A program made the position numbers and the translations under genes. From Serpentinicella alkaliphila (GTDB taxonomy: Bacteria; Bacillota; Clostridia; Peptostreptococcales; Natronincolaceae), in assembly GCF_018141405.1 (NCBI RefSeq), contig NZ_CP058648.1, positions 2,482,502 through 2,506,501 of the forward strand: a stretch of DNA of 24,000 bases, in the 5' to 3' direction. How positions within the stretch are numbered: position 1 is the first letter of the stretch; every line of letters begins with the position of its first letter. Below are positions 6,796 through 8,209 of the stretch, piece after piece. Under the pieces are notes generated by a model. It saw only the letters and a list, made by a program, of their open reading frames with translations. It did no database searches and was not told where the DNA came from.

Positions 6796-7896
6796 ATGTG
6801 GGAATTAGAAAGAAATAAAGATAAGTGCTGTTCTAATGAAAAAGAAATAGACAGTAGTTTAAGTTTTCAAAATCCAAATAGACACTGGATTGTCGGCGAA
6901 ATTTATACACCAATTTGTAAAGTGTTGCAGGTTTCAACTAAGCTGACTATTTTTGACACAATTTACTCTTGGAAGGTTCGCTGGGGAATAAATAGGATGA
7001 ATTACAAAGTTGATCCAGGTATATATTGTATTGGAAATCCAGATGACAAATCCCCAGTACTCGTTACTGCAAACTATAAGATGAGTTTTGATATGTTGAG
7101 AAAAGAATTAAGTGATAAAGATGCTTGGATATTAGTTTTGGACACAAAAGGAGTTAATGTATGGTGTGCTGCTGGTAAAGGAACTTTCGGAACCGATGAG
7201 CTTGTAAGTAAGATCAAAAGTACTAGGTTGTTAGAACTTGTTTCTCACAGAACTATAATTTTACCTCAACTAGGTGCACCTGGTATCTCCGCCCATGAAG
7301 TGTACAAAAGGACTGGTTTTAAGGTAATATACGGACCTGTCAGGGCTTCAGATATAAAAGAATTTTTAAAGAATAATCTGGTTGCAACGCCACAAATGAG
7401 GAAGGTTAATTTTAATATTTTTGATAGATTAATTTTAACTCCAATTGAGATAGTAAATTTAATAAAACCATCTATCTATATAATAAGTACGGCATTTTCT
7501 TTGAATTTACTCACTAATACTTTTTTTAGCATTGAACTTTTTTCTGTAATTGATTTGTGTGGATATATTGGGGCATTAACAATAGGATGTATAATAGTGC
7601 CACTTCTTTTACCCTGGATACCAGGGAAATCCTTTGCCTTTAAGGGTTGGTTATTAGGACTATCATGGGTATTGCTTTTATTAGCTGTAAACAATTCAAT
7701 GATGGGTATACTAAGACAACTTAGCTATATGTTAATTTTCCCGTCCTTATCTGCATTTGTAGCCGTTAACTTTACAGGCTCATCAACCTACACATCCTTC
7801 TCTGGAGTAATGAAAGAAATGAAAATAGCTATACCATCAATTGCAATTAGTATGGTAGTAGGTATTTTCCTATTAATTTTAGGTAGTATAGTATAA
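6796..7896 (+). CDS. hgcA: HgcA, mercury methylation corrinoid protein
   Basis: 366 aa. The soluble N-terminal domain carries GVNVWCAAGKGTF (7150-7188; Cys124 at 7165-7167), matching the diagnostic N(V/I)WCA(A/G)GK cap-helix motif. The C-terminal part has about five hydrophobic TM helices. GGGGGG RBS. The start is 28 nt after marR and hgcB follows 7 nt downstream. Confidence 0.88.
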   Translation: MWELERNKDKCCSNEKEIDSSLSFQNPNRHWIVGEIYTPICKVLQVSTKLTIFDTIYSWKVRWGINRMNYKVDPGIYCIGNPDDKSPVLVTANYKMSFDMLRKELSDKDAWILVLDTKGVNVWCAAGKGTFGTDELVSKIKSTRLLELVSHRTIILPQLGAPGISAHEVYKRTGFKVIYGPVRASDIKEFLKNNLVATPQMRKVNFNIFDRLILTPIEIVNLIKPSIYIISTAFSLNLLTNTFFSIELFSVIDLCGYIGALTIGCIIVPLLLPWIPGKSFAFKGWLLGLSWVLLLLAVNNSMMGILRQLSYMLIFPSLSAFVAVNFTGSSTYTSFSGVMKEMKIAIPSIAISMVVGIFLLILGSIV

Positions 7897-7903
7897 AATA
7901 AGG

Positions 7904-8209
7904 ATGGTGAAACTTGTGGAGCATAAATATTTAAAAAATGTTGTAACATTATCTTTAGATGTAAACCAATGTATAGGGTGTAATATGTGTATTAATGTTT
8001 GTCCTCATGAAGTATTTACTACTAGTGATAAGAAGGTCCAGATACATAATAAGGATAAATGTATGGAGTGTGGGGCTTGTGCAAAAAATTGTCCAGTAGC
8101 TGCAATTGATGTTAAATCTGGAGTTGGGTGTGCATATGCAATCATAGTTGGGAAGATAACAGGTAGAGAGCCGGATTGCGGTTGTAGTGATGAGATAGAT
8201 TGTTGTTGA
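7904..8209 (+). CDS. hgcB: HgcB, mercury methylation 2x[4Fe-4S] ferredoxin
   Basis: 101 aa. CIGCNMCINVCP (7970-8005) and CMECGACAKNCP (8060-8095), the latter HgcB-typical C(M/I)ECGA. GVGCA Cys76 and a terminal Cys-Cys (8201-8206). An in-frame GTG at 7916 with a better-spaced RBS is an alternative start. Confidence 0.85.
   Translation: MVKLVEHKYLKNVVTLSLDVNQCIGCNMCINVCPHEVFTTSDKKVQIHNKDKCMECGACAKNCPVAAIDVKSGVGCAYAIIVGKITGREPDCGCSDEIDCC

Follow-up and report, generated by a model that had tools for sequence, protein, structure and literature searches.

A putative marR-hgcA-hgcB transcription unit in Serpentinicella alkaliphila, with a cysteine-rich regulator of a type also found upstream of arsenic methylation genes

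A 24,000-nucleotide stretch of the genome of Serpentinicella alkaliphila (assembly GCF_018141405.1, contig NZ_CP058648.1, positions 2,482,502 to 2,506,501 of the forward strand), hereafter referred to as the window, contains the mercury methylation genes hgcA and hgcB, preceded on the same strand by a gene encoding a cysteine-rich MarR-family protein. Our analysis indicates that marR, hgcA, and hgcB very probably form a three-gene unit that combines a methylation enzyme with a predicted metal(loid)-responsive MarR repressor. The two hgc genes are genuine, intact, and typical, and because RefSeq carries them already, identifying them adds nothing new. Microbial methylmercury formation has no known genetic determinant other than hgcAB. 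The only hgcAB regulator studied so far is ArsR-like. The MarR-family protein offers a testable lead to a second type of regulator tying hgcAB to arsenic-type control.

The hgcA and hgcB genes

The product of hgcA matched the curated NCBIfam equivalog model NF040863 (HgcA_corrinoid) with a score of 464 bits (cut-off 275, E = 2.5e-139), in a near full-length alignment of residues 43-365 with profile positions 1-324 of 325. [quoted passage not shown] The latter match was confined to residues 70-194, corresponding to profile positions 322-446 of 450. Pfam detected the CdhD-type corrinoid domain alone (PF03599, 53.4 bits, residues 67-190). A search of 5.8 billion proteins returned a 100% identical RefSeq protein, named mercury methylation corrinoid protein HgcA [Serpentinicella alkaliphila], and a next-best relative with about 60% identity. 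We also scanned for HgcA using one genome per species, which provided at least 80 loci, of which 80 were retained; S. alkaliphila was not among the matches listed. Identity to the query across these genome loci was 44-60%.

A first-pass annotation, made from the window alone, had recognized hgcA by the signature GVNVWCAAGKGTF of the cap helix. Every coordinate that it gave for the open reading frame (ORF), the signature, and the codon of Cys124 was confirmed by script (Table 1), and its assignment of both proteins is borne out by the curated profiles. Residues 121-128 (NVWCAAGK) fit the motif N(V/I)WCA(A/G)GK. In an alignment of HgcA with 23 diverse homologs, the motif was in register, and N121, V122, W123, and C124 were invariant. 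All the residues that are invariant among these 24 sequences are present in the S. alkaliphila protein, and the gene has no frameshifts. The annotation had also proposed that the motif sets HgcA apart from CFeSP. Searching PDB sequences with HgcA retrieved CFeSP large subunits only, with no solved HgcA structure; 2h9a and 4c1n matched residues 71-193 with about 49 bits (49.5 bits for 2h9a). Cys124 aligned with a threonine in these structures, the cap helix facing SVLTAWAAG of 2h9a, as proposed. The presence of cysteine in HgcA versus threonine in CFeSP is a published criterion for separating the two proteins (PMC7305189).

The C-terminal portion of HgcA is predicted to be a membrane domain. 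In an AlphaFold2 model built from the 24 sequences (mean predicted local distance difference test, pLDDT, of 66), five long helices spanned residues 208-244, 251-271, 280-299, 305-330, and 335-365, with pLDDT values of about 73-93. This agrees with the approximately five transmembrane helices announced by the first-pass annotation; a strict Kyte-Doolittle scan of HgcA by itself gave three strong segments only. The motif NFTGSSTYTSFSGV-KEM of this domain was invariant across the 24 aligned sequences. At the other end of the protein, an N-terminal extension contains Cys11-Cys12 (6826-6831), which aligned with a conserved KSCCC cluster found in many long-form HgcA homologs. This region falls outside the curated HgcA profile, and no function was found for it.

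HgcB matched the model NF040864 (HgcB_ferredoxin) with 126.8 bits (cut-off 99, E = 2.2e-37) and the HgcAB-like fusion model with 55.8 bits (cut-off 285), whereas Pfam reported generic Fer4 domains. The cysteine features described by the first-pass annotation are all present. The two cluster motifs of the CX2CX2CX3CP type are CIGCNMCINVCP (residues 23-34) and CMECGACAKNCP (residues 53-64); Cys76, in the sequence GVGCA, is located exactly 12 residues past the second motif; and the tail contains cysteines at positions 92, 94, 100, and 101, ending with Cys-Cys. Published criteria for HgcB are two CX2CX2CX3CP motifs, a cysteine about 12 residues later, and at least one C-terminal cysteine (PMC7305189). 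Among HgcB sequences taken from hgcA loci, a cysteine was found 10-14 residues past the second motif in 65 of 78, and four further C-terminal cysteines, as in S. alkaliphila, were found in 43 of the 67 having both motifs. The 101-residue ORF starts 7 nt (AATAAGG) past the hgcA stop codon, exactly as annotated if the first ATG is considered. The public gene call differs, since it starts at GTG 7916 (97 residues, 19 nt past the hgcA stop codon). The latter codon has a better-placed ribosome-binding site (GGTGA, 7906-7910), and the HgcB profile alignment opens at residue 8 of the 101-residue version. The public call and this ribosome-binding site favor GTG 7916 over ATG 7904 as the start of hgcB.

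By homology with the system of Pseudodesulfovibrio mercurii, HgcA would be a membrane-anchored corrinoid protein in which Cys124 ligates cobalt from the cap helix, and HgcB, a ferredoxin with two [4Fe-4S] clusters, would reduce the corrinoid cofactor to Co(I). S-adenosylmethionine (SAM) would methylate the cobalt, and the methyl group would then move to Hg(II), which is probably handled by Cys76 and the four C-terminal cysteines of HgcB, to form methylmercury. Methylation in strain ND132 requires HgcA Cys93, HgcB Cys73, at least one of HgcB Cys94 and Cys95, and the membrane domain, which is essential (PMC7305189). The residues corresponding to those reported as required in HgcA and HgcB are all present in the proteins encoded by the window. 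HgcAB has been purified and is a cobalamin protein associated with the membrane, with a ferredoxin that has two [4Fe-4S] clusters; it uses SAM as methyl donor to form methylcob(III)alamin with Co-thiolate ligation and then methylates mercury (PMC11588087). S. alkaliphila originates from the serpentinite-hosted hyperalkaline Prony field (PMC5003875). Since hgcAB is the sole known determinant, this fermentative alkaliphile of serpentinite-hosted hyperalkaline springs is predicted to be able to make methylmercury.

The regulator, its operator, and its relatives on arsenic genes

The protein encoded upstream of hgcA matched the Pfam MarR family (PF01047, 48.4 bits) and had no match to PF01022 (ArsR HTH_5) in the Pfam scan. 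Its AlphaFold2 model (mean pLDDT of 85) displayed the canonical MarR fold, with helices alpha1 to alpha6 and a beta-wing, and the Foldseek matches were generic MarR proteins (MarR, FabT, SlyA, and ZitR). In the model, the flexible alpha1-alpha2 loop contains Cys32 and Cys33, helix alpha2 has Cys40 and His41 in its first turn, and helix alpha6 ends with Cys147 and Cys148. In the group of related MarR proteins, Cys32-Cys33 and Gln39-Cys40-His41 were invariant and the C-terminal Cys147-Cys148 pair was nearly invariant. The five cysteines were kept whatever the cargo, in 25 of 25 arsM-linked regulators and in 35-40 of 40 hgcA-linked regulators.

Homologs of this regulator (33-61% identity) immediately preceded hgcA, in the same orientation, in 20 of the 80 genome loci, in taxa including Bacillota, Aminicenantes, 'Deltaproteobacteria', and Spirochaetes. 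Classified by Pfam, the same-strand genes upstream of hgcA comprised 19 of the ArsR type (PF01022) and 15 of the MarR type. Genes encoding Acr3-like (SBF), ArsC-like (LMWPc), and ArsP proteins also occurred directly upstream of hgcA in other loci. In two loci, L021 (5047-5939) and L096 (1018-1910), a cysteine-rich MarR gene is followed by an ORF of 111 codons and then by hgcA. An ArsR/SmtB match detected among the intervening ORFs most plausibly corresponds to that of L096; the ORF of L021, not individually identified, has the same length and position. Regulators of the MarR and ArsR types in series would suggest layered control at these two loci.

In the window, the gap between marR and hgcA is 27 nt and that between hgcA and hgcB 7-19 nt, depending on the start codon of hgcB. 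The best consensus match of the region to a sigma-70-type promoter (10 of 12 positions) lies directly upstream of marR. A hairpin located after arsD, the preceding gene, was the sole terminator-like site between positions 5400 and 8400, shuffled sequences yielding about one by chance; it is suggestive of an upstream boundary of the marR-hgcAB unit. Together, the 27-nt gap, the promoter placed directly before marR, and the hairpin after arsD make it likely that marR, hgcA, and hgcB form a single predicted transcription unit.

The promoter region contains a candidate operator, whose two palindromes overlap both boxes (-35 and -10) of the predicted promoter. The palindrome TTG(T/C)A-N3-TACAA recurs before the genes of these regulators, usually as two adjacent copies. 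With the strict pattern TTG[TC]A-N3-T[AG]CAA, we detected at least one site no more than 100 nt upstream of the regulator start codon in 62 of the 105 loci that had enough upstream sequence. The density of sites was 6.7 per kb upstream of the regulators versus 0.038 per kb in the remainder of these loci, a difference of about 177-fold. The position was also conserved, since 52 of 70 sites fell between -55 and -46 relative to the start codon (-48 in the window). This placement is typical of an autoregulated MarR-type repressor. The leader could be aligned across the hgcAB, arsM, and small-methyltransferase loci. One-mismatch palindromes found at positions 5420 and 5501, upstream of arsD, were not above chance and were rejected. 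Transcription of marR-hgcAB would start at the promoter upstream of marR, and a MarR-type dimer probably represses it by binding to the two palindromes over the -35 and -10 boxes. We predict that the five cysteines of the regulator bind a soft metal(loid), for example As(III), methylarsenite, or Hg(II), in a thiolate site, and that this binding would release the repressor.

Relatives of the regulator were also found away from hgcAB. Six homologs from isolate genomes (58-64% identity) all directly preceded a gene encoding a SAM-dependent methyltransferase, with the same leader and operator as in the window. Two of these methyltransferases (272 residues) passed the curated arsenite methyltransferase model with 303 and 294 bits (cut-off 263). 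Two of the six loci adjoin ArsR-ArsD-ArsA operons and, in one of the loci (L085), an Acr3-type (SBF) gene follows. The small methyltransferases of L083, L085, L087, and L081 (207-223 residues) had their best match, below the cut-off, with the 'DVU_1556 family'. They also weakly matched the 'corrinoid protein-associated methyltransferase CpaM' (NF043040), the accession number of which directly follows that of the HgcAB-like fusion (NF043039). In L081 (4001-4626, Desulfosporosinus meridiei), the MarR homolog lacks the C-terminal Cys-Cys, transposase genes are located just upstream, and an ORF of 50 codons, of no known function, separates the MarR homolog from the small methyltransferase gene.

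We then classed the gene located directly downstream of the regulator in 80 metagenome loci that had been picked by the signature of the regulator itself. The downstream gene was ArsM-like in 26 loci and hgcA in 23; in three further loci (L096, L103, and L140), hgcA lay a little beyond this position. Small methyltransferases and GNAT acetyltransferases, the latter ArsN1-like, accounted for six loci each, and other genes for 13, including one for an ArsO-like monooxygenase, genes for MetE and C-GCAxxG-C-C proteins, and an ArsR gene; the contig was too short in the remaining six. The operator is common to the different cargo types. In an unbootstrapped neighbor-joining tree, the cargo was partly clade-specific, the nearest neighbor having the same cargo for 68 of 83 regulators, and was also interleaved. 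The regulator of the window grouped with arsM-linked and small-methyltransferase-linked regulators.

We tentatively propose, as a possibility rather than a probability, that the MarR gene and its operator constitute a portable metal(loid)-sensing cassette, the cargo of which has been repeatedly swapped between ArsM, or ArsN1 and the small methyltransferases, and HgcAB. If this were true, many lineages of Bacillota, Aminicenantes, Desulfobacterota-type bacteria, and Spirochaetes would use hgcAB as a functional alternative to arsM, with arsenite, methylarsenite, or a similar soft metal(loid) as the inducer. In addition to ArsR2, the cassette would then connect arsenic and mercury methylation at the level of regulation by a second, independent route, and the regulator, its operator, and the candidate inducers would offer a concrete handle on what hgcAB is for. 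Since the same type of regulator is found equally often on arsM, the link to arsenic is testable by DNA binding and induction. The alternating cassette and the adjacent orphan arsD support the idea that hgcAB is part of a metal(loid) response. Our literature searches, with most subscription journals outside their coverage, retrieved no description of the cysteine signature, of the operator, or of a regulator shared by arsM and hgcAB. A 'putative regulator', left unnamed, has been reported upstream of hgcAB in 112 genomes (PMC7438021) and may overlap with the MarR family described here.

Other features of the window

Table 1. Positions of the features discussed in the text, numbered from the first nucleotide of the window.
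Feature	Position	Strand	Basis
arsD, arsenite metallochaperone gene, orphan neighbor of the operon	5689..6054	+	NF033727, PF06953
Terminator-like hairpin and T-run after arsD: 11-bp stem with 6 GC pairs, then TAATATTTTT	6109..6147 (hairpin 6109-6137)	+	Hairpin scan
Candidate operator: palindromes TTGCAaaaTACAA (6271-6283) and TTGCAtaaTATAA (6287-6299), half-site TTGTA (6303-6307)	6267..6307	+	Pattern conservation
Predicted sigma-70-type promoter of marR-hgcA-hgcB: -35 TTGCAA (6271-6276), 18-nt spacer, -10 TATAAT (6295-6300)	6271..6300	+	Consensus
Cysteine-rich MarR-family regulator, 149 residues; Cys32, Cys33, Cys40-His41, Cys147, and Cys148 conserved	6319..6768	+	Pfam, AlphaFold2
hgcA, membrane-anchored corrinoid protein of mercury methylation, 366 residues	6796..7896	+	NF040863 and RefSeq identity
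Cap-helix signature GVNVWCAAGKGTF, residues 119-131; Cys124 (TGT, 7165-7167), predicted cobalt-thiolate ligand	7150..7188	+	Alignment
HgcA transmembrane domain, residues 208-365, five predicted helices, including the invariant motif NFTGSSTYTSFSGV-KEM	7417..7890	+	AlphaFold2, hydropathy, alignment
hgcB, 2x[4Fe-4S] ferredoxin with extra cysteines	7904..8209 (ATG, 101 residues; public call GTG 7916, 97 residues)	+	NF040864

The genes surrounding the unit are, in the order of the + strand, those encoding phosphofructokinase (3294-4382) and a di-iron RIC/ScdA-like protein (4731-5408), arsD, marR, hgcA, hgcB, and htpG. ArsD matched NF033727 with 135 bits (cut-off 90) and PF06953 with 151.8 bits. 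The site of ArsD proteins requires Cys12, Cys13, and Cys18, which are intact in the product of the window gene (MCCSTGVC, residues 11-18), in addition to a cysteine-rich tail. The gene is an orphan, as the window contains no arsA, arsB, acr3, or arsR. We rejected its inclusion in the marR-hgcAB unit, since it is followed by its own terminator-like hairpin and was found near hgcA in only one of the 80 other loci. It also has its own promoter-like site. An arsD gene recurs beside some of the MarR-arsM modules, and ars genes located near hgcAB, including arsD, have been noted previously (PMC7438021, PMC10349881).

Scanning the window with Rfam at gathering thresholds revealed no riboswitch or other RNA, and thus no cobalamin or SAM riboswitch before hgcAB. 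Recent horizontal transfer of marR-hgcAB was considered and rejected, since the GC content and the GC content at third codon positions matched those of neighboring housekeeping genes and the nearest homolog was only about 60% identical. Downstream from hgcB, a perfect CIRCE element (8263-8289, TTAGCACTC-N9-GAGTGCTAA), the HrcA heat-shock operator, is located between a TTGACA-type promoter (8231) and htpG (public call ATG 8328); none would be expected in shuffled versions of the window. On the minus strand, at about 13825-15282, this anaerobe harbors a decayed gene for a large-subunit (HPII/KatE-like) catalase, now split among at least four ORF fragments (14832-15086, 14210-14491, 14011-14208, and 13825-14007). 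The assignment is based on profile matches for fragment 14210-14491 and on reading of the translations for the others. Two ORFs, encoding 535 (17810-19417) and 178 residues (10342-10878), had no Pfam match, and the latter had no NCBIfam match either.

Alternative explanations and related systems

It is extremely improbable, and largely refuted, that hgcAB is a non-methylating paralog, either of the HgcAB-like fusion type or a CFeSP of the acetyl-CoA pathway accompanied by a ferredoxin. The corrinoid domain is homologous to that of CFeSP (53 bits for Pfam CdhD and about 49 bits for 2h9a and 4c1n over residues 71-193), and HgcA has a partial match of 201.7 bits to the fusion model. However, both rival models remained below their cut-offs (201.7 < 285 and 83.2 < 306), whereas that of HgcA was exceeded (464 vs 275). 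In addition, hgcA and hgcB are separate genes, the N-terminal Fe-S and TIM-barrel domains of CFeSP have no counterpart, a five-helix membrane domain being present instead, and the cap helix has a cysteine where CFeSP has a threonine. We also consider it quite doubtful that the MarR protein senses redox state or electrophiles through thiols, in the manner of OhrR and AbfR, or that it regulates itself only, its adjacency to hgcAB being irrelevant to metal(loid) sensing. OhrR, AbfR, and E. coli MarR were among the structural matches. Two-Cys OhrR proteins combine a cysteine near the N-terminal helices with a C-terminal cysteine, a layout that the regulator resembles. A vicinal Cys-Cys pair and a third cysteine are nevertheless typical of the As(III) sites of ArsR and ArsD proteins, the cargo consists overwhelmingly of arsenic and methylation genes rather than peroxidase or thiol-repair genes, and the synteny with hgcA extends across phyla.

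The two other alternatives accept that hgcAB is genuine. In one, which we judge rather unlikely and which is compatible with methylmercury production, the native job of the enzyme is a response to arsenic or another metalloid, and Hg(II) methylation is a side reaction. The regulator subfamily and its operator precede ArsM and hgcAB in similar numbers (26 vs 23 of 80), the two methyltransferases tested pass the ArsM model, ArsN1-like and ArsO-like cargoes occur, arsD is adjacent in the window, and Acr3-like, ArsC-like, and ArsP genes directly precede hgcA elsewhere. Furthermore, ArsR-like control of hgcAB, its induction by arsenic, and the sensitivity of an hgcAB knockout to As(V) have been published (bioRxiv 10.1101/2022.10.17.512643), and HgcAB shares with ArsM the use of SAM as methyl donor (PMC11588087). 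These arguments are nonetheless guilt by association only; arsD was rarely found near hgcA (one of 80 other genome loci), and the regulator could sense Hg(II) itself. In the other alternative, which is unlikely, the genes are intact and the host makes little or no methylmercury because of tight repression, a shortage of corrinoid, or the speciation of mercury at a pH of about 9-11. The operon has a likely repressor and operator, HgcAB naturally makes up about 0.0004% of protein, an extremely low level (PMC11588087), methylation is poorly predicted from transcript abundance (bioRxiv 10.1101/2022.10.17.512643), and the organism was obtained from hyperalkaline serpentinite springs (PMC5003875). 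On the other hand, all residues invariant in the 24 HgcA sequences are present, with no frameshifts, and a MarR-family gene is also located upstream of hgcA in Dethiobacter alkaliphilus AHT1, a strain listed as an experimentally confirmed methylator (PMC10349881).

We retain the interpretation of the locus as a marR-hgcA-hgcB unit producing a methylation enzyme under a predicted metal(loid)-responsive repressor, against which several observations weigh. The promoter and terminator are consensus matches that are equally frequent in shuffled sequence. The second palindrome of the operator has one mismatch, and eight one-mismatch sites were found in the whole window for 5.4 expected. Redox sensing is another possible function of cysteine-rich MarR proteins. 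The AlphaFold2 model of HgcA is uninformative at the cap helix (pLDDT < 50 over residues 119-135) and was for this reason not used as evidence for it. Finally, our literature search retrieved no paper linking S. alkaliphila to mercury methylation or hgcA, and hgcAB transcript levels predict methylation rates poorly, as mentioned above.

The closest known system is that of P. mercurii (Desulfovibrio desulfuricans) ND132, which has the same two-gene layout, corrinoid domain, and five-helix membrane domain. The cap-helix cysteine, Cys93 in ND132 HgcA (PMC7305189), corresponds to Cys124 in S. alkaliphila and the HgcB cysteine located about 12 residues past the second motif, Cys73 in ND132, to Cys76; both HgcB proteins have two CX2CX2CX3CP motifs and C-terminal cysteines. 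In contrast to ND132, the S. alkaliphila HgcA has about 31 extra N-terminal residues, including Cys11-12, its HgcB has four C-terminal cysteines rather than two, and the regulator is of the MarR rather than the ArsR type. In ND132, the ArsR-like regulator ArsR2 is co-transcribed with hgcAB and responds to arsenic and S-adenosylhomocysteine (bioRxiv 10.1101/2022.10.17.512643). Like ArsR2, the regulator described here is a small, cysteine-rich winged-helix protein (five cysteines versus four) whose gene immediately precedes hgcA in the same orientation, and it links hgcAB to arsenic-type regulation. It differs by its family (PF01047 versus PF01022), by the layout of its cysteines, and by its operator. 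A MarR-family gene upstream of hgcA has been mentioned in one sentence, for two strains, and was called neither ars- nor toxin-antitoxin-related (PMC10349881). These genes belong to the same family and occupy the same place relative to hgcA; they are known from that mention, which includes neither an operator nor a link to arsM.

The large subunit of CFeSP (AcsC/CdhE; 2h9a, 4c1n, and 4djd) has a homologous corrinoid domain with a cap helix. Unlike HgcA, it carries a threonine in place of Cys124, includes N-terminal Fe-S and TIM-barrel domains, and lacks a membrane domain. As for the regulator, it shares the MarR fold with AdcR and ZitR (5yi0 and 6fi9), with a sequence identity of only about 13-18%. 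The positions mutated in deposited ZitR variants (C30, E41, and H42) mark the alpha1-alpha2 region, the part that contains Cys32, Cys33, Cys40, and His41 in the model of the regulator. AdcR and ZitR bind zinc mostly via histidine and glutamate ligands, and zinc activates their binding to DNA. In contrast, an all-thiolate site and metal(loid)-induced release from the operator would be expected for the S. alkaliphila regulator.

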